Positions 7,516 to 23,251 of a stretch of DNA of 64,000 bases are shown piece after piece. Under the pieces are notes generated by a model. The model worked only from the letters and a program-made list of their open reading frames with translations, was not told the origin of the DNA and searched no databases. The stretch is from an uncultured delta proteobacterium (GTDB lineage Bacteria > Desulfobacterota > Binatia > UBA9968), in the NCBI GenBank assembly GCA_963745835.1, contig CAVUZH010000013.1, positions 704,001-768,000 of the forward strand. The letters are read 5' to 3'. A program made the position numbers and the translations under genes. Position 1 is the first letter of the stretch. Each line of letters opens with the position of its first letter.

Positions 7516-9006
7516 TTACTGCAGAAGCGCCGAGCCGCCATCGTCGCCGATGGTGAGGCTCACGGTCGCCGGGTTCCCAGTCCTAATCAGACTCGCGCCC
7601 TCTCCTTCTGCCTCGAGTTGAAACGTCCCGCCGTCCAGTTGAGTGATTCTCACGTCCAGATTGTCAATCTCGCTCTGGAAGGTGAAACTGGCTCGTCCAT
7701 TGGGCTGGGCCGGATGTGATATGAAAGAGCCTGCAGGGATAGTTCTGAAGAAGTTTCCGACTTGCAGCACCACGCCTTCAGTGAGGGGATTAATACCGTT
7801 GCTCCCGGCACCGACGGTGAAATTTCCATTCACTGCGAACGTACCCGGCGGAGCCAAGGCGATGTCGCCTTGGACCATGAATGCTGCGAAAGGCACTGGA
7901 GACTGACCGGCTATTGTGACGCCAAGAGGAATGTGCCCGGTCGTGAATGGAGAACCGCCGATCGGGCTCAGAGCGCCCGTGGCGCTGTTAATAGTATAAG
8001 CCGACACGCTATTGGAATTGTTATTGGCAACGTAGGCGAACTTTCCCGAGGGATCTACCACCACTGAGATTGGAGCAGATCCGGTGGGGAACGGAGAACC
8101 GCTGACCGGACTCAGAGCACCCGTGGCGCTGTTAATGGTGTAAGCCGACACGCTATTGGAATTGTTATTGGCAACGTAGGCGAACTTTCCCGAGGGATCT
8201 ACCACCACGGCGATAGGAGCAGAACCGGTTGAGAACGGAGAACCGCTGACCGGGCTCAGAGCACCGGTAGCCATATTGATGGTATAAGCCGACACATTAT
8301 TGGAAATGTTATTCACCACGTAGGCGAACTTTCCCGAGGGATCTACCGCCACGTCATACGGACGGGTCCCGGCTGCGAACGGAGAACCACCGATTGGGCT
8401 CAGAACGCCCGTGATGCTATTGATCGTGTAAGCCGACACGCTGCTGCTCCCTGAATTTGTCACGTAGACGAACCTTCCCGAGGGATCTACCGTCACGGAG
8501 ATAGGCATGAACCCGGTTGGGAAAGGAGAGCCGCCAACCGGGCTCAGAGCGCCCGTGGTGTTATTGATCGTATAAGCCGAAACGTTACTGCTCCCTAAAT
8601 TCGCCACGTAGATGAACCTTCCCGAGGGATCTACCGCCACGTCATACGGACGGGTCCCGGCTGCGAACGGAGAACCGCCGATTGGGCTCAGAGCGCCCGT
8701 GGTGCTATTGATCGCGTAAGCCGACACGCTGCTGCTCCCTGAATTCGCCACATACGTGAATTTTCCGGAGGGATCTACCACCACACCGAGAGGAACAGAC
8801 CCGGTGGGGAACGGAGAGCCGCCGACCATGCTCAAAGCGCCCGTGGTGCTATTGATGGTGTAAGCCGACACGCTGCTGCCCCCCGAGTTCGTCACGTAGA
8901 CGAACTTAGGCATTCCACTGCTCACGGCATGATTAGCAATCGCCATGAGGAGAACAATGAGCCCGCCTGTAAAATAGGCCTTAGACAATTCGCCTGCGCG
9001 TTTCAT
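7516..9006 (-). CDS. Secreted 7-bladed beta-propeller (lactonase-family fold) with C-terminal beta domain
   Basis: Signal-like N-terminus; seven 48-aa repeats F.YV.N..S..VSAY.IN..TG.LS...GSPF..G..P....VDPSG. Confidence 0.9.
   Translation of the reverse strand: MKRAGELSKAYFTGGLIVLLMAIANHAVSSGMPKFVYVTNSGGSSVSAYTINSTTGALSMVGGSPFPTGSVPLGVVVDPSGKFTYVANSGSSSVSAYAINSTTGALSPIGGSPFAAGTRPYDVAVDPSGRFIYVANLGSSNVSAYTINNTTGALSPVGGSPFPTGFMPISVTVDPSGRFVYVTNSGSSSVSAYTINSITGVLSPIGGSPFAAGTRPYDVAVDPSGKFAYVVNNISNNVSAYTINMATGALSPVSGSPFSTGSAPIAVVVDPSGKFAYVANNNSNSVSAYTINSATGALSPVSGSPFPTGSAPISVVVDPSGKFAYVANNNSNSVSAYTINSATGALSPIGGSPFTTGHIPLGVTIAGQSPVPFAAFMVQGDIALAPPGTFAVNGNFTVGAGSNGINPLTEGVVLQVGNFFRTIPAGSFISHPAQPNGRASFTFQSEIDNLDVRITQLDGGTFQLEAEGEGASLIRTGNPATVSLTIGDDGGSALLQ
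7915..8905. repeat. Seven tandem 144-bp intragenic repeats
   Basis: Recurring ggatctacc / ggctcagagc / taagccgacac blocks with 144-bp period. Confidence 0.9.
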
Positions 9007-9159: not shown

Positions 9160-10185
9160 TTACCTCTTCGGCAGAAGAACTTCTTTCAATTTCCCAACAG
9201 TGTCTGGCTGGAGATCGAAAAGAGTGCCGAACTTCTTGGTTATAGTCGGTCCGTCAATGACCTCGATATCGAGCTTGGACTTGTTAGCCTCCGCCAAAAA
9301 CTCCGGATCTTTCAGAGTGTCGACGAAAGCCTTCTGTAACAGCTCGAGCCGGTCCTTGGCCATGCCCGGCGGAACGGTGTAGGGGAACTGCGCGCCGTGG
9401 GCGCTGTCGGCGACGGTGACTAGCTGCCTGGCTAAGTCTGTCTTGGCGTAATTGATCGCCAGCGGCACTTTCTTGTACCTCGGGTGCGACTGGAGCGATG
9501 CTTGTAAGACAGCATGAATTTTTCCGCTCTCATAAGCGCTGCGCCAAACCGTTTCGACGGTCTGCCAGGAACCGCAATAGCCGTCGACCTCGCCCGACTC
9601 GACGGCTAGTCGCGCATCGGCGCCGCCCTTGTAACCCTCGAGCACGTCGAGCGGCAGGTTCAAGGCAGCTTTGAGGAGCCTGGGAATATCCGAGGTGCTC
9701 GTACCGGGGCCTATGGACGAAATCTTCATGGGACGCTTTGCCTTGAACCAATCGTCTATCGTCGCGATGCCGCTCTTGTCATTGAACGTGCAAACCGTGT
9801 CATAAGGGCTTGGCACGCCGAGATAGCCGAATTTTCGCGCATCGAACTTTACCGCCTCATTACCCATGATCTGCTGCAGCACCAGGGGCGCGGCCCAGGC
9901 GCCAATGGTGAGACCATCGGGCTTAGCGATGTTGTAAAGATGATTGGCGGCAATGATGCCGCTGGCGCCGGTCATGTTCTCGACCAGAGTCGTCGGATTA
10001 CCGGGAACATTCTTTGAGAAATGCCGCGCAATCACCCGGGTGTAGAGATCGAAGGATCCGCCGGCCGAATAGCCGACGATAAAGCGGATGGTCTTGTCCT
10101 TATAGAATTCCTGCGCTCCAGCCGGTTGCCCTGAAAGCACCGCTAAAAATATCAATGCGATCCATGTAGAAAAGATCCGTCGCAT
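9160..10185 (-). CDS. Tripartite tricarboxylate transporter substrate-binding protein (TctC/Bug family)
   Basis: FYKDKTIRFIVGYSAGGSFDLYTR, VENMTGASG, GYKGGADARLAVESGEVDG. Confidence 0.92.
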   Translation of the reverse strand: MRRIFSTWIALIFLAVLSGQPAGAQEFYKDKTIRFIVGYSAGGSFDLYTRVIARHFSKNVPGNPTTLVENMTGASGIIAANHLYNIAKPDGLTIGAWAAPLVLQQIMGNEAVKFDARKFGYLGVPSPYDTVCTFNDKSGIATIDDWFKAKRPMKISSIGPGTSTSDIPRLLKAALNLPLDVLEGYKGGADARLAVESGEVDGYCGSWQTVETVWRSAYESGKIHAVLQASLQSHPRYKKVPLAINYAKTDLARQLVTVADSAHGAQFPYTVPPGMAKDRLELLQKAFVDTLKDPEFLAEANKSKLDIEVIDGPTITKKFGTLFDLQPDTVGKLKEVLLPKR

Positions 10186-10203: not shown

Positions 10204-10806
10204 CTAGCCCCTGCCGATGAAAGGAATGGTTTTCTTTTCGGTGCGCTCGAGATAGCGCACAAAGGTGTATTTATTCTCGGCAAGATCGGTGTTCGGTCTC
10301 GGAATCTCGCGGTGCATCAAGCTTTCTTCCACCTTACAAACAAAGAATGAAAGCTCATTGCCGGCAAGAGCATCGATGCCGTGCTTTTTGAAATCTTCGA
10401 TATCGCGAATCGTGCGCGCGCTTTTGATGCCCGCGCCTTTAGCCATCGCCTCCAGATCCGTGTTTCCCGAAGTCGCGGTAGCGTAGCTGATGCGGCTGCC
10501 GCTGTAGACGCCGTTGTCAAAGACATAAACAATCAGGTTCTTAGGCTGCAGATTGCCGAGAGTGACGAGATTGAACAACGACAACAGCACGCTGCCGTCG
10601 GAATCGAGCACGATTACCTTGCGGTGCGGCAGGGCAAGAGCCAAGCCCATGCCGACGCCGATAGCACAGCCCATCATGCCCACCAATAAATTGCCTTCGT
10701 GTTTCGACAGATGCGACCACTCGATGCGCTGGCCGCTCTGGGACGTCACCAGCAATTGATCGGTTATGTTCGCGGCAAGCAGTTCCAAGCATTGGTAGCG
10801 GATCAT
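10204..10806 (-). CDS. ThDP-dependent decarboxylase beta subunit (ComE/phosphonopyruvate decarboxylase-like), copy 1
   Basis: GMMGCAIGVGMGLALA, DSDGSVLL...FDNGVY ThDP-Mg motif variant. Confidence 0.85.
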   Translation of the reverse strand: MIRYQCLELLAANITDQLLVTSQSGQRIEWSHLSKHEGNLLVGMMGCAIGVGMGLALALPHRKVIVLDSDGSVLLSLFNLVTLGNLQPKNLIVYVFDNGVYSGSRISYATATSGNTDLEAMAKGAGIKSARTIRDIEDFKKHGIDALAGNELSFFVCKVEESLMHREIPRPNTDLAENKYTFVRYLERTEKKTIPFIGRG

Positions 10807-11318
10807 AGCGAAAACTCTCCGGCAAACAGCAGCGCGAAGGGCGCTCGCAAAGCATTCATGCCGCGCACCGCGTCTTTGATTTTGATTTCCAGCCTGTCGC
10901 CGTCTTCGAGCAGCATGTGCTCGATGCCCAATCCCTGCAAAACCGGAATCGTATGATTGCCGATGGTGGCGTAGAGAAAACTATTGCGCTGATCGGCGAT
11001 GCCGCCCAAAAAACCGACCACCAGCAATATCGGCACCCCCAATTGTTTGCCCACCGCAAGCAAGCTGTAGCTGGAAACATAGATGCCGGTATTTTCCATG
11101 TACACAGCGGCCTGCTTGCCGCCGAGAGTTGCGCCGGCGGCGATCGTCACCGCTTCCTGTTCGCTTGCGGCTGCAATCAACTCGATCTCAGGATCGTTCC
11201 GAATCAAGGGAACGATCTGGCTAAGCCGGGTTTCCGGCAGGTAAGTAACGAAATTGATTCCAGCGTTTTTGAGACCCTGAACGATACGTTGCGCTAGTTC
11301 GTCTGTCATAGATGGCAA
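10803..11318 (-). CDS. ThDP-dependent decarboxylase alpha subunit (ComD-like), copy 1
   Basis: GINFVTYLPETRL, SEQEAVTIAAGATLGG, YMENTG; ATGA overlap with beta. Confidence 0.85.
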   Translation of the reverse strand: MPSMTDELAQRIVQGLKNAGINFVTYLPETRLSQIVPLIRNDPEIELIAAASEQEAVTIAAGATLGGKQAAVYMENTGIYVSSYSLLAVGKQLGVPILLVVGFLGGIADQRNSFLYATIGNHTIPVLQGLGIEHMLLEDGDRLEIKIKDAVRGMNALRAPFALLFAGEFSL

Positions 11319-11427
11319 TTTGAATTAGCAACTAAAATGATCTGCCGCAACGGCGTCCGAGAAGAACAATCGAATGATGGACTACTTGGTCAAATCCAGC
11401 CCCACTATTCCATGACTCACTACTCCA

Positions 11428-13677
11428 TTAATCCCGTCTGCCGCGTAGCGCCCACAAAACCTTCTCGGCCGTGATCGGCAAATCATAGATGCGCACGCCG
11501 ACAGCGTCATGCACGGCGTTGGCGATGGCCGCTGCGGTCGGAATCACCGGCGGCTCGCCGATGCTCATCGCGCCATAGGGACCATTGCCCACCGGGTTCT
11601 CCTGAATGATCGTCTTCAGTGGCGGCACATCCATGATCGATGGAATCTTACTGTCGCCAAAGTTGGTGGTCATCACTTTACCGCCATCGATCATGACCTC
11701 TTCCATGAGCGCGTAACCGATGCCCATGACGACGCCGCCGTCGATCTGGCCCTGGTGCATGAGCGGATTGAGCACGGTTCCGGTGCTGTGCGCGGTGGTA
11801 AACTGCTTGACCGTCACCTGCCCCGTTCCGACATCGACCTCGACTTCGGCGATCTGAGCGCAAAGCGCGGCTTCAGGACCGGACTCGAAATTCTTGTAGA
11901 AGCCGTGGCCGCGAATTCCCTCGCCGCTGGCTTGAGCAATCTCGCCATAGCTGATGCTCTTGCCCGCCGCGCTCCGCACCGTTCCGTCTCCACCCAGAAA
12001 AAGCTCTTCCTTGGCGACACCCAGCTTGTAGCTCGCAATCTCGATCAACTGTTCTCTGGCTTGCGCCGCGCCGAGCCGGGTTGCATGGCCGAAAATCCGG
12101 GTGCCACGGCTGGCGCCAATTCCGGTATCCGTACCGACCTCGCTGGTATCCAACGTTGCCACGCGGACCTTCTCTAGCGGCAGCTTGAGTTCTTCGGCCG
12201 CTACCAGCCGCATTGCGGTGTGCGTTCCCGCCCCTTGATCGAGCATTGCCGTGGCAACCGTAACCGTCCCCTGACCATCGATCGTGACCAGCGCGTGGCA
12301 CTCACCGCCCAGCGGCAGCCACTGAGCCAAGCCGATTCCACGACCGGAATGTTTTCGTTTGGGTCGGCGATAGCCCGATTGTTCAACCGCGCTTTCGACG
12401 AGCTCGGCGCTTTTGATATGCGGGATGACGTGGCCGATCGGCGAAAGCTCACCGTCGCGCAGCAAATTCTTTTCCCTGAAAGCCACCGGATCCATGTCGA
12501 GCTGCCTGGCGATAAGATCCATCTGCGATTCGTTGGCGAAAAACCCTTGGGGATCTCCCGGCGCGCGCATATGTCCGCACGGAATTTTATTGGTGTAAAC
12601 GATCCGCTCGCGGATAAAAACATTGGGAATGCGGTAAGGTCCGGCGGCCTCTTTGGGGCCAACGAGATAACCCTGCGGCTTGAAGGCGCCGTAAGCGCCG
12701 CTGTCGAATACATATTCCATGCGATGAGCGATCAGCCGACCGTCTTTGTTTACGCCGGTTTTTACCCGCACGATGGCAGCGTGACGCGGATTTCCGGCAA
12801 CGAATTCTTCTGCATAATCCATCACCATTTTCACCGGCCGGCCGCTCTTCAAGGACAGCAGGTAACAGACCGGCACGTCCATGAAATCGCCTTTGCCGCC
12901 GAAGCAACCGCCGATATAACAAGGATGAACCGTGAAATGCTCAAGGCGTTTGCCAAACGCCGTGGCGACCTGTTCGCGCAGCGCGAACGGCACTTTCGAG
13001 CAGGCCCAAATATCGGCATGACGCTGTTCCTGTGCTTGGACGACACAGGCGTGCGGCTCTATATATGCCTGATGGACCGGTCTGGTGGTAAAAACATTTT
13101 CGACGACGATGTCGGATTCGCGGAACCCCGCTTCGACATCGCCTTTCTTCCAATTCATGTCAACAAAAACGTTGCTCGGCGTTTCAATCGGATGAAGCAA
13201 GCCCCGATATGCGCTTACGTCCGGGTGAAGCAGCGGCGCGTTCGACTCGATCGCTTGCAGCGGGTCGAGCAGCGGTTCCATCTCTTCATAGTCGACCGCG
13301 ATCAATTCCACCGCCTGTTCGGCAATCGCTTCGGTCTCGGCCGCAACCGCCGCTACTTTCTCACCGATGAACCTGACAACGCCGTCGGCGAGGATCGGCA
13401 TATCGTAGATTTTCCGGCCAATCAAAAGACCTTTGACGTCTTCGCCAGTGGCAACCGCGCGCACGCCGGGCAAAGCCAATGCGCGGCTGGTATCGATCTT
13501 GGTGATGCGGCCGTAAGAAATCGGGCTGCGCAGAACTTTACACCAGAGCATTTCCGGCAACACTACGTCAGTGGCATATAGCGCCTGGCCCGATACTTTT
13601 TCCGGACCTTCCAGACGTTGCGTCGGGGTGCCAATGAGATTGCGGATTTTGTTATTCGGATGATCGATTGCTTTCAC
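11428..13677 (-). CDS. Xanthine dehydrogenase/aldehyde oxidoreductase family molybdopterin-binding subunit
   Basis: EKVSGQALYATD, HQAYIEPH, GGCFGGK, HMRAPG, GQIDGG, IGEPP, AIANAVHDAVG. Confidence 0.93.
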   Translation of the reverse strand: MKAIDHPNNKIRNLIGTPTQRLEGPEKVSGQALYATDVVLPEMLWCKVLRSPISYGRITKIDTSRALALPGVRAVATGEDVKGLLIGRKIYDMPILADGVVRFIGEKVAAVAAETEAIAEQAVELIAVDYEEMEPLLDPLQAIESNAPLLHPDVSAYRGLLHPIETPSNVFVDMNWKKGDVEAGFRESDIVVENVFTTRPVHQAYIEPHACVVQAQEQRHADIWACSKVPFALREQVATAFGKRLEHFTVHPCYIGGCFGGKGDFMDVPVCYLLSLKSGRPVKMVMDYAEEFVAGNPRHAAIVRVKTGVNKDGRLIAHRMEYVFDSGAYGAFKPQGYLVGPKEAAGPYRIPNVFIRERIVYTNKIPCGHMRAPGDPQGFFANESQMDLIARQLDMDPVAFREKNLLRDGELSPIGHVIPHIKSAELVESAVEQSGYRRPKRKHSGRGIGLAQWLPLGGECHALVTIDGQGTVTVATAMLDQGAGTHTAMRLVAAEELKLPLEKVRVATLDTSEVGTDTGIGASRGTRIFGHATRLGAAQAREQLIEIASYKLGVAKEELFLGGDGTVRSAAGKSISYGEIAQASGEGIRGHGFYKNFESGPEAALCAQIAEVEVDVGTGQVTVKQFTTAHSTGTVLNPLMHQGQIDGGVVMGIGYALMEEVMIDGGKVMTTNFGDSKIPSIMDVPPLKTIIQENPVGNGPYGAMSIGEPPVIPTAAAIANAVHDAVGVRIYDLPITAEKVLWALRGRRD

Positions 13678-13678
13678 T

Positions 13679-14434
13679 TCATTCCCTACCGGCGGCGTCC
13701 AGAGCGGCTTGCAGGCATACGCCGTGCAGATCCACGGCTGTTAGCCCGCAATATTCCAGACTGTACCCAGGCCGCGCGGTCGCCATGCCGTCTTCGAAGA
13801 GCCGCTGCAAAACCACCCGTCTGAAACTGCCGTGACCCATCACGCCGTCGTGCTCCTCGAGGTCGGCCTCTTCATGAGTCGAAAAATAGACCGCCTGCTC
13901 GCGGGTTAAACCGTAATGCGCCGTCAGCGCTTTGAAAAATTCCGCCGACCAGTAGCCAGTCTGCTCTTCGGTCGCGCCCGCGGCATAGAACTCGGCCACG
14001 GTTCCTTCCCAAAGAATCGATCGTTTGAAATCGAGCTTGGCGCGAAACTCGGCCAGCATCGGCGCGAGAAAAATCTCATCTTCAGTAATGCCCAGCGCCT
14101 TGGCGGTTTCCACTACGACGTGGACGTGACCCGGAGGTTTGGGGTGAATCAACTCATCGGCCAGCTTTGCTGCCATGGGTGCCATGAGATCTCGATGCTT
14201 GCGGAAAAAAGAAATGTGCTTGTGGTAAGACGCAGCCTCCAGGGTGTTTATCTCGATGGTATACGAGCCCCAGTTCTTAAAAAAAATCCTCAAGGCTTTC
14301 TCAGGGAGCTTTCCCGCTCGTAACTGTTTCATAAAGGGCCCGTCGGTCACTCTTTCCTGCCAGCGCTTGGCAACTTTGCGGTAATGCTCATCGACCAGCG
14401 CTTTGGCTTGCCGGCTATCCATCGAGGTCGTCAT
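13679..14434 (-). CDS. Heme-oxygenase-like (TenA/PqqC/CADD) diiron redox protein
   Basis: HO-like pattern with E, DE..H..H, EEQ and YFSTHEEADLEEH candidate metal ligands. Confidence 0.8.
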   Translation of the reverse strand: MTTSMDSRQAKALVDEHYRKVAKRWQERVTDGPFMKQLRAGKLPEKALRIFFKNWGSYTIEINTLEAASYHKHISFFRKHRDLMAPMAAKLADELIHPKPPGHVHVVVETAKALGITEDEIFLAPMLAEFRAKLDFKRSILWEGTVAEFYAAGATEEQTGYWSAEFFKALTAHYGLTREQAVYFSTHEEADLEEHDGVMGHGSFRRVVLQRLFEDGMATARPGYSLEYCGLTAVDLHGVCLQAALDAAGRE

Positions 14435-14452
14435 CTGATTCTCCTGTACCTG

Positions 14453-15052
14453 TTAATTGTGACTGCGAACGAACCGTTTCCTCTCGGTTCGTTCGAGATA
14501 CCGAACGAATAAATACTTGTTCTCTAGGGGATCCATATCGGTCCGCGGGATGCGGCGATGCTCGCTGCTTTCTTCCACCTTGCACACGATAAATTTCAAT
14601 CGGTTCTCTTTCATCGCCGCCGTCATTTCCTGTTTAAACGATTGAAGGTCGCGCACAGTCACAGCATTTTCAATACCGGCGGCTTGCGCCATCTTGGCCA
14701 GGTCGGTTTTTCCCGCAGTGGCTGTCGGTTCGCTGATCCGGGTGCCGCTGTAGGAAGCGTTGTCGAAAACGAAAATTATCAAGTTGTTTAAATCGAGATT
14801 GGCCAGGGTCGGCAGATTGAACAACGATAAAAGAACGCTGCCGTCCGATTCCAAGACGATAACTTTTCGCTGCGGCAGAGCGACAGCCAGGCCCATGCCT
14901 ACTCCCAGCGCCGTCCCCATGGTGCCGACCAGAAGATTGCCTTCGTGCTTGGATAAGTGTGCCCACTCGATTTTCTGACCGCTTAAAGAAGTCACGACGA
15001 TCTGGTCCGTAATCAGCGGCGCGAGCAGCTCAAGGCAGTCGAATCGGATCAT
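14453..15052 (-). CDS. ThDP-dependent decarboxylase beta subunit, copy 2
   Basis: MIRFDCLELL, GTMGTALGVGMG, ESDGSVLL, FDNASY. Confidence 0.85.
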   Translation of the reverse strand: MIRFDCLELLAPLITDQIVVTSLSGQKIEWAHLSKHEGNLLVGTMGTALGVGMGLAVALPQRKVIVLESDGSVLLSLFNLPTLANLDLNNLIIFVFDNASYSGTRISEPTATAGKTDLAKMAQAAGIENAVTVRDLQSFKQEMTAAMKENRLKFIVCKVEESSEHRRIPRTDMDPLENKYLFVRYLERTERKRFVRSHN

Positions 15053-15573
15053 CGGGTAAAATCTCCGCTAAACAGAAGAGCTACCGGAAGCTTGAGCGCC
15101 TGGGTGTGGCGCGCCGCGTCTTTGATGCAAATTTCGAGATTGTGACCAGTTTCAACCAGCCGATACTGAATCTCCAAAGCGTCGAGCACCGGCGTCACAT
15201 ACGCTCCCGAAACCGCATAGACGGAATTGTTGCGCTGATCGGCAAAGCTACCCAGATGGGCGATCAGCAGCAGGAGCGGCACTCCGAAACGTTTTGCAAT
15301 CGATAAAATGCTGTAGCAGGAGACGTAGAGCCCGGTGCATTCCATGTAAATTGCAACTTGCTTGCCGCCCAAAGCTGCGCCGGCGCCGATCGTGATTGCC
15401 TCGGCTTCACTGGACACCGGAATGAGCTTGAACGAATCGTCGCTTCTAATCAGCGGCAGGATTTGGCTTAGCCTGGTTTCAGGCAAATAGGTGATGACGT
15501 CGATGCCTGCTTCACGTAAGCCGGTGACCAGTTTTTGCGCAAGTTCTTGTTCCATGGGGACTACTGTCCTCAT
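15049..15573 (-). CDS. ThDP-dependent decarboxylase alpha subunit, copy 2
   Basis: YLPETRL, SEAEAITIGAGAALGG. Confidence 0.85.
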   Translation of the reverse strand: MRTVVPMEQELAQKLVTGLREAGIDVITYLPETRLSQILPLIRSDDSFKLIPVSSEAEAITIGAGAALGGKQVAIYMECTGLYVSCYSILSIAKRFGVPLLLLIAHLGSFADQRNNSVYAVSGAYVTPVLDALEIQYRLVETGHNLEICIKDAARHTQALKLPVALLFSGDFTR

Positions 15574-15766
15574 TCAGAAGTCTGCAAAGCTCGACGAGTT
15601 CGAGTGATGCTCGCGGAATCAGGGCATCAGCTCTCACTACTCTCGCCCTTTGCTAAGGGATACAAAAGAAGGGGTATGCCAGCTTGCCCATAATGACAAC
15701 TGAATCATACAACGAGGTTCATAGACACACCGCAGTTAACCGGGATAGATTTTAGCCAGTCGTTTC

Positions 15767-16762
15767 TCACTTCACCCCCAGCTCCTGGTTGACCTCGCGT
15801 TGCAGTGAAAAATCGAAAACCTTCGACGGTGACACTGGCTCCTTCAGTTTGAGAAGCTCGGCTTCGGACTTGAGAAACTCCTCGATCTCTTTATCAGAAG
15901 GGATGCCGTTCAAAGTGAACGCCGGTTTTGCCAGGCGGTACGATTCCACCGCCACGGGCAGCTCAACGTTCTGATATTTTGCCAGGACTTCGCTGGTGCC
16001 GCGCTCATTTTCCATGAAGTAACGGTTCGCCCGCATGCGCGCGCGTAAGACGCGCTTCAGGACATCTCTTTTTTCGCGCAGAAATTTTTCCGTCACCGCG
16101 GTGCCATTCTGAAGGTTGGCCAGATCTTCCATTGCCGAACCGAGAACGTTCATGTTGTACTTGTCCCGCGCCAGAATAACGGTCGGCGGCGAAAGCGCCG
16201 CGGCATCGATGGTTCTGCCGACCAGACTTTGCAGCTGAGCCGGGACGTCGCCGCCGACAACTACAGTAATATCCTTTTCGTCGACGCCGCCTTTGCGTAT
16301 CAGACGCATAGCCGCCGAGTGCTGCGAGCCGCCCAAAGTGGTGGTGCCCAAGGTTTTGCCTTTGAGCTGAGCAATAGAGGTGATTTCCGTCCTGGATACC
16401 AGCCAGAAGAGATTGCGTTTCAGACTGACAGTCAGAATCTTCATCGGCAGCTCGCTGCGCTCCAGCGCTCGGATGACGGTGCCAACACCGTTGGTAGCTT
16501 GAACCTGCCCGCTCAAGGCCGCGGCGATGGCGACGTTGCCGCGAATCTGAACGATGTCGACATCGAGCCCTTCGTCGCGGAAGAACCCGCGGTCTCTGGC
16601 GATATAAAGATCGATGGCGGCAATGCTGCGGCTTGGGATCGAGAAGATCAGCTTCTCGGCGGTTTGGGCCAGCGACGAGTCAATCGAAAATAAAACCCCG
16701 AGCACGGAGAGAATCACAGAGAAGCCAGCGGCATAAATTTTTCGGCTAAGGGTAATCAGCAT
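15767..16762 (-). CDS. ABC-type substrate-binding protein, NMT1/SsuA-like
   Basis: Signal peptide; IARDRGFFRDEGLDV, LKGKTLG. Confidence 0.88.
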   Translation of the reverse strand: MLITLSRKIYAAGFSVILSVLGVLFSIDSSLAQTAEKLIFSIPSRSIAAIDLYIARDRGFFRDEGLDVDIVQIRGNVAIAAALSGQVQATNGVGTVIRALERSELPMKILTVSLKRNLFWLVSRTEITSIAQLKGKTLGTTTLGGSQHSAAMRLIRKGGVDEKDITVVVGGDVPAQLQSLVGRTIDAAALSPPTVILARDKYNMNVLGSAMEDLANLQNGTAVTEKFLREKRDVLKRVLRARMRANRYFMENERGTSEVLAKYQNVELPVAVESYRLAKPAFTLNGIPSDKEIEEFLKSEAELLKLKEPVSPSKVFDFSLQREVNQELGVK

Positions 16763-16820
16763 GAAAGCCTCGGTAGTGTGATGTTGTCGCCTCGATGATC
16801 GCGCTCAGTGGCAGCCGCAG

Positions 16821-17789
16821 CTACTTAGGGGTTTCGCCCATTTCCTTCAAGATCTCACGCACGATACTAAAATCAAATACGTCGTCCACCGCGACGTTCC
16901 TCTTGGTTTCGACATTCCAACGCGTGCTCTCGATCACATTTTCCAAGGTGGGCCTGGATACCAGGAGGTTACGGCTGTAGTTCTTGTAGTTGTGCTGATA
17001 GGCCTCCTCGGCGACTTCCGGTTTCGATCTGCCCCAAGCGGCAAGAATCTTGATCGCGCCCTTGGGGTTATCCAAAATAAACCGGTTGGCCCGCAGCAGA
17101 GCGCGGGTTATTTTCTTTACTTCGTCTCGATCGTTTTTGAGCTTCTGTTCGTGCAGTCCGATGCCGTTCACCGGAAAAGCAAACAGATCGCGAACATTCA
17201 ATAATGTTTTGAAGCCGGCGGCTTCGGCCCGCAGATTTCCCGGCGGCGTTAGAAATGCCGCCTGAACAACCCCGGTTTGCAATTGCGTGAGTCGCGCCGA
17301 GCTGCTGCCGGCGGCAACATACTGGACATCGCTTTTCGGGTCGAGCTTGAAGTGCGCTGATGTCAGCCGGGCGAGGATATCGACCAGAGAGCCGAACGAG
17401 CTAATCGCGATCTTCTTGCCTTTAAGATCAGCAAACTTTTGGATGCTCGGGTGAACCACGACCGCGTGGTTTGGCCGCTCGATCAAAATGCCGGTGACTT
17501 TGAGCGGCAGCCCGCGAAGATTCGCGGTGACGACGGATTGTAAGATAAGATTGTAATCGATATTGCCGGCCGCCAGAGCCGCAACCGACACATTGGCGTT
17601 CATCTGCAGCACGTCGACGTCCAGTCCCTCATCTTTGAAGTAGCCTTGAAAATGAGCGACACCGCCGCTCAGAAACGACATGTCGGGATTGGATACACCG
17701 ATGTAAATAGTTTTGGCTTCAACGCTCTGAAATCCTAAAGTAACGAAAGCAATTAAAAAGCCGGTTATCTTACACACTCGAAGTTTCAT
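16821..17789 (-). CDS. ABC-type substrate-binding protein, NMT1/SsuA-like
   Basis: Signal peptide; GYFKDEGLDV, DLKGKKIAISSFGS. Confidence 0.88.
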   Translation of the reverse strand: MKLRVCKITGFLIAFVTLGFQSVEAKTIYIGVSNPDMSFLSGGVAHFQGYFKDEGLDVDVLQMNANVSVAALAAGNIDYNLILQSVVTANLRGLPLKVTGILIERPNHAVVVHPSIQKFADLKGKKIAISSFGSLVDILARLTSAHFKLDPKSDVQYVAAGSSSARLTQLQTGVVQAAFLTPPGNLRAEAAGFKTLLNVRDLFAFPVNGIGLHEQKLKNDRDEVKKITRALLRANRFILDNPKGAIKILAAWGRSKPEVAEEAYQHNYKNYSRNLLVSRPTLENVIESTRWNVETKRNVAVDDVFDFSIVREILKEMGETPK

Positions 17790-17836
17790 CTTTCATTCTC
17801 CCGTTGCAAGTTGATCGTAATAAGCAAGAAGTTCCT

Positions 17837-17961
17837 GCAGGCTGCTCAAAAGATCTCATAGGCGAGGCGCGCGATGGCCGACGAGCGGAAGCGTACGTGG
17901 TGAGTACGTTGAGCGAGTCGGGCAAGCGTAACGAAGCATATGAGGCTTTTCCGCAGCCTGC
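17837..17961. mobile_element. 125-bp MITE-like element with terminal inverted repeats
   Basis: Left gcaggctgctcaaaagatctcata; right tatgaggcttttccgcagcctgc; internal palindrome cgtacg..gtacg. Confidence 0.75.
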
Positions 17962-18467
17962 TAATCGGTAAATTCGCCGGTGAACAACAGAGCCACCGGC
18001 AACTTCAAAGCATTCATCATGCGCACGGCGTCATCGATTCGCGCCTCGAGATGGTCCCCAGATTCGACCACGACGTGTTCGATGCCGATGGTCTTTAGCA
18101 GGCTCATCGTTTTGATGCCATAGTGAGAAAACAAAAAAGAGTTTCGCTGATCATCGAAGCTGCCGACGAAAGCTACTAGCAGAAGCATCGGCACGCCATA
18201 GCGCTCGCCAACGGTAAGGAGGTTGTAAGCGGAGACAAACAGGCCGGTTCCTTCCATGTAGACTGCCGCGCGTTTGCCGCCTAAAGCGGCTCCGGCGGCA
18301 ATGCCCACCGCTTCCGCTTCACTCGATACCGGCGCCAGGGTAAAAGCCTCGTCCGCTTTCATCACCGGAAGAATCTCGCTCAATCTGGTCTCGGGAATGT
18401 AACTGACGAAATCGATCCCGGCTCGTTTTAGCGCGGCAACCATTTTATGAGCCAACTCCGGTTTCAT
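17961..18467 (-). CDS. ThDP-dependent decarboxylase alpha subunit, copy 4 (no beta downstream)
   Basis: YIPETRL, SEAEAVGIAAGAALGG, YMEGTG. Confidence 0.85.
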   Translation of the reverse strand: MKPELAHKMVAALKRAGIDFVSYIPETRLSEILPVMKADEAFTLAPVSSEAEAVGIAAGAALGGKRAAVYMEGTGLFVSAYNLLTVGERYGVPMLLLVAFVGSFDDQRNSFLFSHYGIKTMSLLKTIGIEHVVVESGDHLEARIDDAVRMMNALKLPVALLFTGEFTD

Positions 18468-18475
18468 AATCCCGG

Positions 18476-19075
18476 CTACCCACGCCCATGAAAAATCGGT
18501 TTGCCTTCGGTGCGTTCAAGATAACGCACGAAACGATACTTTGTTTCCAACAGATCGACGTTGCTTCTGGTAATTTGTCGGTGGCCGACGCTCTCTTCGA
18601 TCTTACAGACTACGAAACGCAAGCCGTTTTCATTAAGGGCTCCTGTTGCTTCGGTTTTGAAATCCTCCAACTCCGAGACCGTCACGGAATGCTCGATGCC
18701 CGACCCTCGAGCCACCGCAGCCAGATCCGTCCTGCCTGCGGTAGCGCTCGGGTAACTGATTCGCGTGCCGCTGTAAGCCTGATTGTCGAAAACGAATACC
18801 GCCAGATTCGCCGGGTTCAGATTGGCCAAAGTCGGCAGGTTAAAGAGCGAAAGCAGCACGCTGCCATCGGATTCGAAGACAAACACTTTTCGGTGCGGCA
18901 GCGCCAGCGCCAGGCCGATGCCGACCGCAAGGGCATTTCCCATGGAGCCGAGATTGAGGTCGGCCTCTCGCTTCGACAGATGCCCCCATTCGACTCTCTG
19001 ACCGCTCAGCGACGTGACCACCAGTTGGTCGGTCATGAGCGGCGCCAGCCATTCGAAACAATCGTACCGAATCAT
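18476..19075 (-). CDS. ThDP-dependent decarboxylase beta subunit, copy 3
   Basis: GSMGNALAVGIG, ESDGSVLL, FDNQAY. Confidence 0.85.
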   Translation of the reverse strand: MIRYDCFEWLAPLMTDQLVVTSLSGQRVEWGHLSKREADLNLGSMGNALAVGIGLALALPHRKVFVFESDGSVLLSLFNLPTLANLNPANLAVFVFDNQAYSGTRISYPSATAGRTDLAAVARGSGIEHSVTVSELEDFKTEATGALNENGLRFVVCKIEESVGHRQITRSNVDLLETKYRFVRYLERTEGKPIFHGRG

Positions 19076-19578
19076 AAGGTAAAGTCCTCTGTGAACAATA
19101 AAGCCACCGGCTGTTTGAGCGCGTTCATCATGCGCACGGCGTTTTTAACTTTGCGCTCGAGCCCTTCACCGTCGCGGATCACATGATACTGCACATCGAG
19201 AGCTTCCAATTGCGGGATCAGCTTGATGCCGCGCTGGACATAAAGAAAGCTGTTTCGGTGGTCTTCCAAACTGCCGACGTAGCTTACCAATAACAACATC
19301 GGCACGCCGTACCGAACGCCAACTGTCAAAATGTTGTAGCAAGCGACGTAAACCCCGGTTCCTTCCATGTAACTGGCAACGACTCTGCCGCCGAGAGCGG
19401 CGCCCGCGGCGATCGACACGCCTTCGGCTTCGCTGCCCACCGGCGCCAGTTGGAAGTGGCTATCGCTTTGTAGCAACGGTATGATTTGGCTGAGCCGGGT
19501 CTCAGGCAGGTAGGTCAGAAAATCGATTCCCGCCGCCCGCAACGAATGCACCAGGCTTTGCGCCAGGGTTTCTTGCAT
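19072..19578 (-). CDS. ThDP-dependent decarboxylase alpha subunit, copy 3
   Basis: YLPETRL, SEAEGVSIAAGAALGG. Confidence 0.85.
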   Translation of the reverse strand: MQETLAQSLVHSLRAAGIDFLTYLPETRLSQIIPLLQSDSHFQLAPVGSEAEGVSIAAGAALGGRVVASYMEGTGVYVACYNILTVGVRYGVPMLLLVSYVGSLEDHRNSFLYVQRGIKLIPQLEALDVQYHVIRDGEGLERKVKNAVRMMNALKQPVALLFTEDFTL

Positions 19579-19580
19579 CC

Positions 19581-20588
19581 CTATTTCGCCTTGCCTTTAT
19601 AGAGGCCGTCGATGTAACCGCTGTCATCGAGTTCTTTGATGAAGCGGGTATCGACAAATTGCTCGGGACGCGCCGACTTGGCTTTGGGATTTTCATCGGC
19701 GATCGCGTCTAGAACCGTCTGAATTCCCGGCAGTGACGGATATTGCTTGCGCGAATATTTATCGTCTGTGGACGAGAGCTCGTAACTTCTTTCGAGAATT
19801 TCTTTATTGGCGGTCTGCCGCAGATACTTGCCGAGCACCGCGACGCTGGTCTTGCGATCGGTCTTCATCAGATGGACTGCTTCGATTTGGGCTTTGACGT
19901 AGCGCCTTGCCGTGTCTGGATTATCCCGGACAAAGCGGCGCGATGCCGCGATGCCATTGTGCAAAAACGGCAATCCCAGAGCGCCGACATCGGCAAGCAC
20001 GTTGAAACCTTCCTTCTCCGCGACGATGCTGGTGGGCGGACTGAGAAGCGTGGCTTGCAGGCGCTTGTTGCGCATCGAGATCAGCCGCTCCGGCGTGCCG
20101 CCGATAACGATGAATTTGACGTCCTTCGAATTCAAGCCAAGTTTTTGCAGCGCGAATTCTGTGGCTACCAACGATGCGCCGCGAATCGAGGCAAGTCCCA
20201 CGACTCCGCCCTTGAGCATTTCGGCTGTTTTGATTTCCGGCTGGCTCATAAAAATGAAATCCAGGGTTGCCATACCGCCGGCGATGTAAACCAGGTCCGA
20301 GCCCCTGAGAGTGCTCTCGAGAACGACCGGACCCGAAGCCTGGATGAAATCCAGCTCGCCGGAAAGGAGCGCCATGACCCCGATCGTGGTGCGAGTGCGG
20401 ACCAAGTCAGCGTCCAAGCCATTTTTGGCAAAAATCCCGGCTTCACGAGCCAGCCACGTGACCAGCGATCCCGGCGCATCGGAACTGTAGCCGACCTTGA
20501 TCTTCTTGGCTTGGGACCAGGCGCCGGTAGGATTGCAGATAAATGCAACTATTACCGCGCAGATCAGTGCTTTTATAAGGTTCATCAA
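19581..20588 (-). CDS. ABC-type substrate-binding protein, NMT1/SsuA-like
   Basis: Signal peptide; WLAREAGIFAKNGLD, PEQFVDTRFIKELDDSGYID. Confidence 0.88.
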   Translation of the reverse strand: MMNLIKALICAVIVAFICNPTGAWSQAKKIKVGYSSDAPGSLVTWLAREAGIFAKNGLDADLVRTRTTIGVMALLSGELDFIQASGPVVLESTLRGSDLVYIAGGMATLDFIFMSQPEIKTAEMLKGGVVGLASIRGASLVATEFALQKLGLNSKDVKFIVIGGTPERLISMRNKRLQATLLSPPTSIVAEKEGFNVLADVGALGLPFLHNGIAASRRFVRDNPDTARRYVKAQIEAVHLMKTDRKTSVAVLGKYLRQTANKEILERSYELSSTDDKYSRKQYPSLPGIQTVLDAIADENPKAKSARPEQFVDTRFIKELDDSGYIDGLYKGKAK

Positions 20589-20679: not shown

Positions 20680-22335
20680 CTACTTCTTTTCACTCGCTTG
20701 TTTTTTAAACTTTTCAATTTCTTCGGCCATGTACTTTTTCTTGAGATCCATAAACTTCGTGCCTTTGGGCACTTTGATACCGTGCTTAGAACTAAACTCG
20801 GCATTCAGGCTGTGATTGCCGGCGACTGCGTTGCCGGCCTGGATTGCCGCTTCCTCCGGCCATAAGCCCAGTGAATATCCGGACCAGGGCGGGCGCGGAT
20901 TCAATTTCGGCAAGCCCAACTCGACCCAGATCTCGCGGGCGCGGTCCATAAACGGCCGCTGCGGCAACGCCACCGGCGGAAATGCCGCCTTCAAAGTCGC
21001 GTCTACCAGCAATGTCGAATCAGTCACATCATAATGCTCCCCATCCGCGACATACCGGATAGGGTTCCAAGGCAGAGGGCGGTTCGGCACGATCCGCATG
21101 TCGCGGTGCGGCTGGCAGCGATTTGCTATCGCCCACAATAAAGATTGCGCATCGTGCGGATCGATATCTTCATCGACGCAAACGATCAGCTTGTGAATTA
21201 CGCGGGACGGCAGCAGCCCTTCGAGCGCGCGCCAGGTGTCATCGGACTTTTCTTTTTTGATCTGTATGACCGCAACCTGGCGGTTGAGCAAATCTTCGTA
21301 AAGTGCGACGCGGCGCGCGTTCACTCCGACGTTTTTGTTGAGATGCTTCAATGCCAAAGTCTCATAGGCGGATTGTTTGATCTTGCTCGACTCGCTCGGC
21401 GTTAACTGGCTGATCATCGAGACGTAAATGGGATTCTTGCGATGGGTGATGCAGGTAACTTCGAATACCCCGTTCAAATCTCCCGGGTCGAGATAACCGT
21501 GCGCCTCGCCAAACGGCCCATCGGGCTCGAGATAATCCCAGGGAATTTTTCCCTCGATAACGATATCGGCATGCGCCGGAACTTCGAGATTGACTGTCTT
21601 ACAGCGGACCATCTCCAGTGGGCTGCGCGCCAACCCGCCTGCCAGCGCCACTTCGTCGACCCCGTAGGGGACCGGCTGCACCGCCGCGTAAGTAATACAC
21701 GGCGGGCCGCCGAGGACGATTGCGGCATCGAGCGGAATTCCCCTCTCATTACATTTCTCCCAATGGATCGCGGTATGCTTGAGGCTCCCCCACATGATGC
21801 CGGTTTTGAGAGGGCCTTTGATTTGCCCCCGGTACACACCCATGTTTCTGACGCCGGTTTCAGGATCCTTGGTGATCCAGCATCCGGCCGTTAGATAAGG
21901 CGCATTGTCAAACCCGGGTGTGGAGATTGGAATCGGCAGTTGGTAAAGGCCCCCTTTGCGAATCAGCTCTTCTCCTTGACAGACGACTTCCTGTACCGGG
22001 CCTTCCTTTACGAGAACCGGGTCGATGGGCTTCTCCAATGCTTGCGACCAGATCTCTTCGACTTCCGATTCTTTGCACATCAACCCCAAAGCATAAATCT
22101 TCTGCGAAGCCGCAAGCCCGCCGATAAGAACAGGAATGTCGTACTGTTTGCCTTTGGCGTCATAGATATTCGCAAACAGGAAAGCCTTTCTTTGCTGCTC
22201 CTCGAGGCCGCGGAACTGCCAACGAACCAGCGGGTGCATCTCGGTATCTTTGTTGATGGCTTTGTCGATCCGGATCAACAGGCCTTCTCGCTCGAGAACC
22301 TGCACATATTCAGAAAGGCTTTTGTAGTACGACAT
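20680..22335 (-). CDS. UbiD-family (prFMN) decarboxylase, long form
   Basis: KDPETGVRNMGVYR, VIEG, DGPFGEAHGY, VCVDEDID. Confidence 0.92.
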   Translation of the reverse strand: MSYYKSLSEYVQVLEREGLLIRIDKAINKDTEMHPLVRWQFRGLEEQQRKAFLFANIYDAKGKQYDIPVLIGGLAASQKIYALGLMCKESEVEEIWSQALEKPIDPVLVKEGPVQEVVCQGEELIRKGGLYQLPIPISTPGFDNAPYLTAGCWITKDPETGVRNMGVYRGQIKGPLKTGIMWGSLKHTAIHWEKCNERGIPLDAAIVLGGPPCITYAAVQPVPYGVDEVALAGGLARSPLEMVRCKTVNLEVPAHADIVIEGKIPWDYLEPDGPFGEAHGYLDPGDLNGVFEVTCITHRKNPIYVSMISQLTPSESSKIKQSAYETLALKHLNKNVGVNARRVALYEDLLNRQVAVIQIKKEKSDDTWRALEGLLPSRVIHKLIVCVDEDIDPHDAQSLLWAIANRCQPHRDMRIVPNRPLPWNPIRYVADGEHYDVTDSTLLVDATLKAAFPPVALPQRPFMDRAREIWVELGLPKLNPRPPWSGYSLGLWPEEAAIQAGNAVAGNHSLNAEFSSKHGIKVPKGTKFMDLKKKYMAEEIEKFKKQASEKK

Positions 22336-22399: not shown

Positions 22400-23251
22400 T
22401 TAGATAGTTAAGAGGTTTTCCCAGCCATAGCGCGCTTTGAAGCCGAGCATTTTCTCGGCTTTCGCCGAATTGACGCCGCTCCAGTTGCCGGCGCGAGCGT
22501 TTTTCACCGGGAGGCCTTGGCCGAGATACTTCTCGATTAGTTCGACAGTCGGCTCTCGCATGCTGCTCGTTGGCGCCGCGACGATCATGACCTCATGTCC
22601 GGCAAACTCCGCCTCGATCGCCAAGCGACAAGCGGTTGCCGCGTCGCGGCCGTCGATGTATGCCCATGACGTGTTGGCGCGGGCGCCGGGATCTTTCCAA
22701 CGATCGCGCACCGAGTCGTAGGAGAAATCGAACACCACACCTGGAAAACGCAAGCTGCTGATCGCCAAATCGCCGTGCAGCAACGCTACGGAATCGGCGA
22801 TCTGCTCGCCGACGACTTTAGACAACCCGTACGGGTCCTGCGGCCTGGACGGATGTTGCTCGTCCAATGGCAAGTATTCAGGAACCATGCGCTGCAAAGC
22901 GTAAATAAAACCGAAAGCCGCCGTGCTCGAAGCCATCACCACTTTTTTGACACCAAGATCGGCAGCGGCTTTGAGCACGTTGTAACTTGCGGTCACATTG
23001 TTGCTGAATACTTCCGCATCCGGCGCCAGCCCGGGCGCTTGGTACGCGCCCAGGTGCACGATGCCGTATGCGCATCTGAGAGCCTGATACAGATCACCCG
23101 AACAGCGCAAATCGGCGATCCAGCTCGGGCACGCGTTCACTGCCGGCCGCACTCGATCCAACGAAAGAACCTGGTACTCGTGAAATAGAAGTTCCTGAAT
23201 GACGAGTTGTCCCAGTCGCCCGCTACCACCGGTTACCACAATTTTTTTCAC
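22400..23251 (-). CDS. NAD(P)-dependent epimerase/dehydrogenase (extended SDR)
   Basis: VTGGSGRLG, YGLSK. Confidence 0.9.
   Translation of the reverse strand: MKKIVVTGGSGRLGQLVIQELLFHEYQVLSLDRVRPAVNACPSWIADLRCSGDLYQALRCAYGIVHLGAYQAPGLAPDAEVFSNNVTASYNVLKAAADLGVKKVVMASSTAAFGFIYALQRMVPEYLPLDEQHPSRPQDPYGLSKVVGEQIADSVALLHGDLAISSLRFPGVVFDFSYDSVRDRWKDPGARANTSWAYIDGRDAATACRLAIEAEFAGHEVMIVAAPTSSMREPTVELIEKYLGQGLPVKNARAGNWSGVNSAKAEKMLGFKARYGWENLLTI

Follow-up and report, generated by a model that had tools for sequence, protein, structure and literature searches.

Seven genes for split thiamine diphosphate enzymes in an uncultured member of the Binatia belong to an uncharacterised clade expanded in one order

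A 64,000-nt stretch of the genome of an uncultured member of the Binatia (contig CAVUZH010000013.1, positions 704,001 to 768,000; hereafter the window) carries four genes for alpha subunits and three genes for beta subunits of split thiamine diphosphate (ThDP) enzymes. We found that these seven genes belong to an uncharacterised clade of the split-enzyme family that holds sulfopyruvate decarboxylase (ComDE), phosphonopyruvate decarboxylase (Ppd) and LumKL, and that its members have multiplied in one order of uncultured Binatia. The source genome is 7.28 Mb long, in 25 contigs, with 97% completeness and 9.3% contamination.

Results

Seven paralogous genes under purifying selection

The original prediction, made from the sequence alone, had placed four alpha and three beta genes here, and its coordinates match the list of open reading frames (ORFs). 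The seven genes are as follows.

10803-11318, minus strand: alpha1, PYR-domain subunit of pair 1, 171 aa; PF02776 33.1 bits; own orthogroup
10204-10806, minus strand: beta1, PP-domain subunit of pair 1, 200 aa; PF02775 49.8 bits; own orthogroup
15049-15573, minus strand: alpha2, PYR-domain subunit of pair 2, 174 aa; PF02776 29.7 bits; own orthogroup
14453-15052, minus strand: beta2, PP-domain subunit of pair 2, 199 aa; PF02775 61.6 bits; own orthogroup
19072-19578, minus strand: alpha3a, PYR-domain subunit, 168 aa; PF02776 24.8 bits, under the cut-off of 26.8; TIGR03845 74.3 bits; own orthogroup
18476-19075, minus strand: beta3, PP-domain subunit between two alpha genes, 199 aa; PF02775 54.0 bits
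17961-18467, minus strand: alpha3b, extra alpha without a beta of its own here, 168 aa; PF02776 36.6 bits; own orthogroup

Every alpha-to-beta junction (alpha1/beta1, alpha2/beta2 and alpha3a/beta3) is a 4-nt overlap, and 8 nt separate beta3 from alpha3b; the cognate alpha and beta genes are translationally coupled. All three betas matched TPP_enzyme_C (PF02775; 49.8-61.6 bits against a cut-off of 21.9), and three of the four alphas exceeded the cut-off for TPP_enzyme_N (PF02776; 29.7-36.6 bits). Alpha3a fell just under that cut-off, and its TIGR03845 match spans the full length of the protein. The betas of the window are 64-66% identical to one another and the alphas 52-58%, so the seven genes are true paralogs and not a chance resemblance. 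In FastTree trees, each of beta1, beta2 and beta3 and each of alpha1, alpha2, alpha3a and alpha3b fell into a separate group together with sequences from other metagenome-assembled genomes (MAGs); these are ancient, specialised paralogs.

Purifying selection acts on all seven genes. The ratio of nonsynonymous to synonymous substitution (dN/dS), calculated pairwise against orthologs, was 0.02-0.17 across the set: 0.06-0.09 for alpha1, 0.03-0.08 for beta1, 0.07-0.14 for alpha2 (five of six ortholog pairs), 0.06-0.13 for beta2, 0.05-0.10 for alpha3a and 0.06-0.17 for alpha3b over nine orthologs. The tightest constraint was found in beta3, with 0.02-0.08 in five of six pairs (dS was saturated in the sixth, against L022_b1) and 92-94% amino acid identity to the orthologs in the related loci L020, L022, L023 and L058.

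The clade is separate from ComDE and phosphonopyruvate decarboxylase

The best NCBIfam models for the window proteins were TIGR03845 (ComD), TIGR03846 (ComE) and TIGR03297 (Ppd), and all scores lay far below the curated equivalog cut-offs. The alphas reached 74.3-89.6 bits with the ComD model (cut-off 147.95), the betas 90.0-103.4 bits with the ComE model (221.5) and the window proteins 44.2-88.6 bits with the Ppd model (312.5). Not only in the window but at every one of the ten split ThDP loci of the genome, scores were about half the cut-offs or less (best 136.2 against 221.5).

We then placed the betas in a tree of 43 sequences (IQ-TREE quick search). The references were taken from annotated plasmids and comprised the comD/comE genes of Leisingera and Sulfitobacter, so named by the Prokaryotic Genome Annotation Pipeline (PGAP) and lying in settings of the 2,3-dihydroxypropane-1-sulfonate (DHPS)/sulfolactate type, the fused Ppd of Rhizobium etli beside phosphoenolpyruvate (PEP) phosphomutase, and five unstudied split pairs from cultured bacteria. 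A clade of 36 rows, with a Shimodaira-Hasegawa-like approximate likelihood ratio test (SH-aLRT) support of 99, united the nine intact betas of the genome with related MAG sequences and a beta of Rhizobium tumorigenes. It excluded ComE of Leisingera and Sulfitobacter, Ppd of R. etli and the pairs from Priestia, Deinococcus, Methylobacterium and Ruegeria. Within this tree, sequences with the motif SDG (see below) formed a group of 25 rows with a support of 100. The deep branching order is unsure because several long branches were flagged and archaeal ComE is not in the tree; judged by these sequences, the separation of the window betas from the ComE and Ppd sequences used is clear. The phylogenetic check proposed with the original prediction thus gave no clustering of the window betas with PGAP-named ComE or with Ppd, and its view of an uncharacterised subfamily is supported by both the scores and the tree.

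The gene content agrees with that prediction in another respect: among the window ORFs scanned, we found no member of the ComA, ComB, ComC or PEP mutase families, and no gene of the coenzyme M or sulfolactate/DHPS pathways near the pairs. In the genome, no PEP mutase scored above its cut-off (best TIGR02320 match 141.3 bits against 319.55). The sole ComA-like gene (phosphosulfolactate synthase family; G000:C14:417739-418405) is on another contig, in three pieces in different frames and far from any pair.

A modified cofactor motif marks the clade

The motifs named in the original prediction were all present by alignment: SDG-X25-DN and SG(S/T)RIS in the three betas, and (L/I)PETRL and D(Q/H)RN(S/N) in the four alphas. 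The beta motifs are the more general. SDG together with SG[ST]RIS occurred in 120 of the 120 top database homologs, and SDG in 83 of 86 betas from related loci; the other three (two with GDG, one with no match) all fell outside the clade in the FastTree beta tree. Among 96 related alphas, 63 had [LIM]PETRL and 72 had DxRN[SN]. For these counts, related hits were accepted at 140-230 aa (alpha) and 170-260 aa (beta), with 37 hits falling outside, and one frameshifted beta on contig C16 of the genome was left out of both trees and motif counts.

Compared with the Mg-diphosphate motif GDG-X(24-27)-NN, the window betas keep the Asp and the second Asn at canonical spacing and carry Ser in place of the first Gly; we take this Asp and Asn to be the metal-liganding residues. 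DN is also found in the aligned rows of ComE, Ppd and RhiF, and the solved homolog PDB 9u8q has TDG at the position of SDG. Calling the cofactor motif non-canonical was therefore right for the first Gly of GDG but overstated for the site as a whole, and SDG reads as a marker of the clade rather than as a damaged site. In the alphas, the PYR-domain Glu motif SE(Q/A)EA (SEQEA in alpha1, SEAEA in alpha3b) is present in all four and aligns with the Glu of RhiE and ComD. Other positions set the clade apart. SG(T/S)RIS replaces the STG(G/D)Q of ComE, Ppd and the Priestia protein, and LPETRL replaces the VPC(K/S) of ComD and Ppd, other paralogs in the genome having LPD there; presumably, and as a lead only, the LPETRL position may align with the active-site Asp after 'PG' in pyruvate decarboxylase. 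In addition, a C-terminal tail (ENKYxFVRYLERTE plus ~10 aa) is common to all paralogs of the genome and the R. tumorigenes protein and is absent from ComE and Ppd.

Alpha and beta subunits are paired by type, with one extra alpha

Each alpha and beta in the related loci was assigned to the nearest window paralog, and 69 adjacent alpha-then-beta pairs were tabulated. A type 1 alpha stood beside a type 1 beta in 35 of 36 cases, type 2 beside type 2 in 7 of 7 and type 3a beside type 3 in 19 of 21, which gives 61 type-matched pairs of 64 for types 1, 2 and 3a combined. Given this near-strict pairing of neighbours, free combinatorial mixing of subunits is not supported.

Type 3b alphas behaved differently: they were followed by an NMT1 gene 13 times, by a type 3 beta four times and by a type 1 beta once, and those adjoining a beta had a beta3-type neighbour in four of five cases. 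The Glu motif is kept in 10 of 10 alpha3b-type sequences. In seven related loci (L021, L026, L027, L029, L030, L032 and L083), one NMT1-like gene stands between an alpha3b-type gene and a beta gene, giving the order alpha-NMT1-beta. In another locus (L067), the gene directly after UbiD is of the beta3 type and the next one of the alpha3b type, and no alpha3a is present. The conservation of alpha3b, the alpha-NMT1-beta loci, the gene order in L067 and the constraint on beta3 together suggest that beta3 may serve two alternative alphas, 3a and 3b.

The clade is abundant in one order of Binatia

The battery is not peculiar to the source genome but is a conserved feature in an order of uncultured Binatia. 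The genome itself holds ten beta and eleven alpha loci of the split ThDP kind. A match at E 1e-15 or better was found in 37 of 121 sampled genomes of the same class, and in the three families of the window's order all sampled genomes were positive (6/6, 6/6 and 2/2), with 1-12 copies each. The assumption that such enzymes normally occur as a single pair thus fails in this lineage.

A database search among word-sharing candidates gave 1682 homologs at 90% clustering; at 50% identity, the numbers of clusters were 2627 (E 1e-3), 676 (E 1e-10) and 44 (E 1e-30). Nearly all of the nearest named records come from uncultured MAGs under the label Candidatus Binatia or 'Deltaproteobacteria'; a few are from Chloroflexota and others. 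Records sourced from JGI name many close homologs 'sulfopyruvate decarboxylase subunit beta', and a protein atlas returned generic TPP_enzyme_C clusters only. We found no member of the SDG group in a cultured organism, the best plasmid match being 36.8% identical, and the literature searched on Binatia with such enzymes and on heterodimeric ThDP decarboxylases held nothing concerning this clade.

Two further observations concern the family. The tenth locus of the genome (G000:C16:292176-293309; L007 9186-10310) needs two frames for its beta gene to be read, and one reading contains an in-frame TGA, possibly a sign of a pseudogene or an assembly error; the locus adjoins a glucose-methanol-choline (GMC) oxidoreductase, CoxG and a Mo large subunit. 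Five distant relatives (P0151, P0155, P0177, P0263 and P0258) are 373-393 aa long, with the beta-like part N-terminal in four and C-terminal in one; fused forms may thus exist in both domain orders.

The genes lie in a conserved island

From 31445 down to ~9160, the ORFs of the window are co-directional with short gaps. This island includes six NMT1-like and one TctC binding protein, two UbiD ORFs, a Rieske oxygenase, a lyase of the dihydrodipicolinate synthase (DHDPS) family and short-chain dehydrogenases/reductases (SDRs). The neighbours of the seven genes, with two genes at the downstream end of the array, are as follows.

6482-7504, minus strand: NMT1 binding protein (Pfam), downstream array end
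7516-9006, minus strand: lactonase-type beta-propeller (Pfam), downstream array end
9160-10185, minus strand: TctC/Bug-family periplasmic carboxylate-binding protein (PF03401), 18 nt downstream of beta1
11428-13677, minus strand: large subunit of a xanthine-oxidase-family Mo-hydroxylase (PF01315, PF02738, PF20256), 109 nt upstream of alpha1
13679-14434, minus strand: heme-oxygenase-like protein (TenA/PqqC/CADD superfamily; PF14518 32.3 bits, PF03070 25.4 bits; CADD/4-aminobenzoate synthase in PDB, 24 bits)
15767-16762 and 16821-17789, minus strand: two NMT1/THI5-like binding proteins (PF09084), between trio 3 and pair 2
19581-20588, minus strand: NMT1-like binding protein (PF13379 and PF09084), directly upstream of alpha3a; synteny
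20680-22335, minus strand: UbiD-family (prenylated-FMN) decarboxylase (PF01977; TIGR00148 272 bits, over cut-off; nearest PDB 6h6x/6h6v, 190 bits)
22400-23251, minus strand: SDR/epimerase (Pfam)
23614-24543, minus strand: NMT1 (Pfam)
24540-25430, minus strand: DHDPS-family lyase (Pfam)
25558-26532, minus strand: 324-aa protein with a weak LigXa_C match
27154-28293, minus strand: second UbiD-family ORF, 379 aa, without a UbiD_C domain match
28333-29217, minus strand: SDR (Pfam)
29221-30210, minus strand: NMT1 (Pfam)
30213-31445, minus strand: Rieske oxygenase (nearest PDB a putative phthalate 4,5-dioxygenase, 183 bits)

The structures 6h6x/6h6v are, we assume, those of the furandicarboxylate decarboxylase HmfF, and the second UbiD ORF may be truncated or frameshifted. 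Synteny was screened by tblastn with the window neighbours in 73 related loci, 42 of them at least 15 kb long; since many of the contigs are short, the gene-order counts are minimum values. The full 12-gene order alpha3a-beta3-alpha3b-NMT1-NMT1-alpha2-beta2-heme-oxygenase-like-Mo large subunit-alpha1-beta1-TctC was found in four of the 73 (L020, L022, L023 and L036), where the two NMT1 genes between trio 3 and pair 2 hold the same position. Shorter orders were more frequent: alpha-beta-TctC in 20 loci, Mo subunit-alpha-beta in 17, Mo subunit-alpha-beta-TctC in 12, alpha-beta-alpha in 11 and beta-heme-oxygenase-like-Mo subunit in seven. In the 42 long loci, homologs of UbiD occurred in 18, of the Rieske oxygenase and the 324-aa protein in 17 each, of the DHDPS-type lyase in 15 and of an SDR in 14. 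The lactonase had no homolog in the 73 related loci and therefore probably lies outside the conserved unit.

Genes for periplasmic binding proteins are extremely expanded in the genome: by tblastn, it holds ~309 NMT1/THI5-like and 94 TctC-like genes. It also has 101 amidohydrolase_2, 33 UbiD and 32 Mo-hydroxylase large-subunit genes, with only 16 CoxM-like and 18 CoxS-like genes. Although the window has seven NMT1-like genes, its scanned ORFs included no member of an ABC permease or ATPase family. The heme-oxygenase-like gene is 18 nt from beta2 and 1 nt from the Mo subunit gene, and its product has the ExxH-type motifs DELIH and HEEADLEEH; its sequence suggests a di-iron oxidase of the CADD/UndA kind. 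Elsewhere in the window, a type I restriction R subunit (859-3322) appears to be divided between two overlapping ORFs (ResIII/HSDR_N at 1370-3322 and EcoEI_R_C at 859-1482), which suggests a frameshift.

A molybdenum hydroxylase subunit gene is tightly linked to pair 1

The tightest link in the island is Mo subunit-alpha1-beta1-TctC. In the genome as a whole, a Mo large subunit gene lay within 5 kb of five of the ten beta loci (two of the five share one Mo gene), against an expectation of ~0.054 per locus for the 32 such genes. The window subunit scored under all NCBIfam equivalog cut-offs. Its nearest PDB matches were the alpha subunit of 4-hydroxybenzoyl-CoA reductase (282 bits), CoxL (241), quinoline 2-oxidoreductase (230) and Kdh (225), while the aldehyde oxidoreductases MOP and PaoC scored 205 and 181 bits. 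The C-terminal SIGEPP motif, presumably the place of the catalytic Glu, is kept.

DNA and RNA libraries contain the genes

The 9.4-kb stretch with the seven genes was present at 0.56 or more of sampled words in 14 DNA runs from six studies of soil or rhizosphere. Furthermore, contigs from four metatranscriptome runs (four studies) fall on all seven genes; parts of the island without RNA-library contigs were given no weight as evidence. Such contigs bridge the alpha3b/beta3 junction (X15 at 18302-18559, X17 at 18401-18675 and X18 at 18222-18942) and the junction of beta2 with the heme-oxygenase-like gene (X16 at 13781-14744). They establish presence and are compatible with co-transcription. Just downstream of alpha3b, in an A-rich intergenic stretch (window 17836-17960), many RNA-library contigs end their match or carry small indels, which suggests that strains differ there.

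Discussion

A tentative model for the split enzymes

The reading that we put forward, tentatively and with rather less than even confidence, is that the pairs are non-oxidative 2-oxo acid decarboxylases in an island for the breakdown of aromatic or heteroaromatic (poly)carboxylic acids, with alpha3b using beta3. The seven genes would then make three cognate alpha/beta ThDP enzymes and a second alpha, 3b, that works with beta3. The alpha subunit would contribute the PYR domain with the activating Glu, the beta subunit would contribute the PP domain holding the Mg-diphosphate, and the active site would form at the interface of a heterotetramer, as in RhiEF. Such enzymes could turn 2-oxo acids, for example those of the aryl-glyoxylate type or from ring fission, into aldehydes. 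The Mo-hydroxylase large subunit encoded beside pair 1 would then oxidise the aldehyde made by that pair, whose substrate, or a precursor of it, would be brought in by the TctC protein encoded next to beta1. The catabolism of carboxylated aromatic or heteroaromatic compounds is suggested by the gene content of the island (UbiD, Rieske, DHDPS-type lyase, SDRs, Mo subunit and binding proteins). Nearly all characterised ThDP decarboxylases act on 2-oxo acids, and the island looks oxygen-rich rather than nitrogen-rich; for both reasons we favour the classical 2-oxo acid route.

Several points weigh against this model. The proposed chemistry and substrate class are drawn from homology and gene context. 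The Mo subunit is nearer to ring-acting enzymes than to aldehyde oxidoreductases, which favours the heterocycle alternative discussed below, and genes for its iron-sulfur (FeS) and flavin (FAD) partners are not near it (CoxM in 1 and CoxS in 2 of the 42 long loci). Pairs 2 and 3 lack a neighbour that would obviously consume an aldehyde. The other paralogs of the genome and the R. tumorigenes plasmid pair sit among amidases, amidohydrolases and Mo enzymes, neighbourhoods with a nitrogen-heterocycle flavour. With ~309 NMT1-like and 94 TctC-like genes in the genome, adjacency to one of them is in itself weak evidence, and we rejected NMT1-like adjacency as a stand-alone functional argument. Finally, because DNA carry-over is possible, the RNA-library contigs are no proof of transcription.

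Alternative explanations

Heterocycle chemistry after the LumKL model is possible, if rather doubtful. Here the pairs would decarboxylate ring carboxylates on the C=N carbon of an N-heterocycle (2-carboxylates of the quinoxaline, pyrazine, pyridine or pterin type), and the Mo hydroxylase would then hydroxylate the freed carbon, compare LumJ. The precedent is LumK/LumL, after which a xanthine-oxidase-like enzyme and a Rieske dioxygenase act (PMC12746152). The window has the order Mo large subunit-alpha1-beta1 and a Rieske oxygenase in the same island, and its Mo subunit is closest to ring-acting family members. In R. tumorigenes, moreover, the genes after the pair encode a GMC oxidoreductase, an amidohydrolase, a ring-hydroxylating dioxygenase and a MoCoBD protein, a Lum-like content, and paralogs of the Binatia genome lie near amidase, amidohydrolase_2, isochorismatase-like, asparaginase_2, cyclase and RidA genes. 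However, the likeness to LumK/LumL is one of gene content, the island has no amidase or deaminase, and a phthalate-dioxygenase-like Rieske oxygenase together with a UbiD nearest to 6h6x/6h6v points to oxygen-rich aromatic acids; there is also one known precedent against many 2-oxo acid decarboxylases. A change of reaction rather than of substrate, to C-C lyases or carboligases that cleave or form acyloins or 1,2-diketones (compare benzaldehyde lyase and cyclohexane-1,2-dione hydrolase), seems unlikely. ThDP enzymes with the same PYR/PP core do catalyse such reactions, weaker NCBIfam matches to models of the acetolactate synthase and IolD type were obtained, and the substrate-loop motif is SG(T/S)RIS where ComE and Ppd have STG(G/D)Q. 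Yet the nearest characterised relatives, ComDE, RhiEF/Ppd and LumKL, are all decarboxylases, and other decarboxylase classes are gathered in the same island.

The two remaining alternatives concern the identity and the assembly of the subunits. That four alphas and three betas mix freely into up to 12 heteromers with different specificities, as the original prediction had suggested, would suit the conserved 4:3 ratio of alpha to beta (alpha-beta-alpha in 11 of 73 loci) and the single fold of all subunits, but we think it very unlikely: neighbours are matched by type, cognate genes overlap by 4 nt, the alpha and beta trees give matching orthogroups and only beta3 hints at two partners. What is left of that idea is the alpha3a/beta3/alpha3b trio. 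Still more improbable is that the genes encode genuine ComDE or phosphonopyruvate decarboxylases. The JGI labels on close homologs and the best NCBIfam models (TIGR03845, TIGR03846 and TIGR03297) would agree with this, and NMT1-family binding proteins include sulfonate binders. Scores of about half the cut-offs or less, the tree separation from PGAP-named ComE and Ppd, and the replacement of motifs common to ComE and Ppd speak against it, as do the lack of a genomic PEP mutase above cut-off and the fragmented ComA-like gene remote from the pairs; ten loci in diverse catabolic contexts do not fit one cofactor pathway.

Significance

A bolder extension, which we regard as rather doubtful, is that soil Binatia strip the carboxyl groups successively from polycarboxylated (hetero)aromatic acids by an undescribed route, with three mechanistic classes of decarboxylase. 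The ThDP pairs would perform LumKL-like or new chemistry on ring carboxylates and feed the lone Mo subunit, and beta3, shared by alpha3a and alpha3b, would provide two specificities. Whatever the reaction, three things make the system interesting: its clade is unassayed, the clade is linked to Mo hydroxylases, and two PYR subunits possibly share a single PP subunit. The clade is large, reaches 12 copies per genome and is routinely mislabelled 'sulfopyruvate decarboxylase'; conserved gene order links it to Mo hydroxylases, UbiD decarboxylases and Rieske oxygenases. Knowing the substrates would correct many annotations and could show by what means the abundant, uncultured Binatia break down recalcitrant aromatic acids in soil; such work would also test the swapping of PYR subunits on one PP subunit. 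We know of no description of subunit swapping in ThDP enzymes and found none in the literature searched.

Comparison with known systems

To our knowledge, the split ThDP decarboxylases with a known reaction are only ComDE, RhiEF/Ppd and LumKL, and the 2025 report on LumKL still terms such enzymes rare (PMC12746152). ComDE, which acts in coenzyme M synthesis and in bacterial sulfolactate/DHPS breakdown (TIGR03845/TIGR03846), resembles the window pairs in having two small subunits (PYR ~170 aa and PP ~190 aa), overlapping alpha-then-beta genes, the same Pfam domains and a conserved activating Glu and Asp...Asn metal site. It differs in its motifs (window SDG for GDG, SG(T/S)RIS for STGDQ and LPETRL for VPCKQL) and in the C-terminal tail, which ComE lacks; furthermore, the Leisingera and Sulfitobacter loci have sulfonate pathway genes, whereas none lie near the window pairs. 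RhiE/RhiF (PDB 9IZ3/9IZ4) is the best match among solved structures, at 38.4 bits for alpha2 and 34.6 bits for beta2, and has the same split architecture; it binds thiamine pyrophosphate (TPP) at a heterotetrameric interface (PMC12141560). The phmmer matches to RhiEF/Ppd are nevertheless weak (E 1e-8 and 1e-7), and Ppd of R. etli adjoins a PEP mutase, which the window genome lacks above cut-off.

LumK/LumL of Nocardioides simplex is a two-subunit TPP enzyme that decarboxylates a quinoxaline carboxylate in lumichrome catabolism, LumJ being the xanthine-oxidase-like enzyme that acts after it (PMC12746152). As in the window, the enzyme is clustered with a xanthine-oxidase-family hydroxylase and a Rieske enzyme, a likeness of gene neighbourhood. 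LumJ has FeS and FAD domains of its own, whereas the window Mo subunit is a large subunit standing alone, and the window island is without amidases. The structures PDB 9u8q, 9u8r and 9u8s show a split pair of TPP domains (alpha ~170 aa, beta 194 aa) with a TDG metal motif, but match the window proteins at only 24-30 bits; the literature search found no paper treating them as structures. As a functional lead, 9u8q was set aside, a TDG paralog of the genome being nearer to RhiF (56.5 against 36.0 bits) and the R. tumorigenes beta likewise (48.4 against 44.2). The closest cultured relative found is the unstudied pair on plasmid pRt1078 of R. tumorigenes. Although this pair is ~36% identical, has TDG instead of SDG and has other neighbours (a GMC oxidoreductase, an amidohydrolase and a ring-hydroxylating dioxygenase), it falls in the same clade of SH-aLRT 99, shares the C-terminal tail and, like pair 1 of the window, adjoins a Mo-cofactor enzyme.

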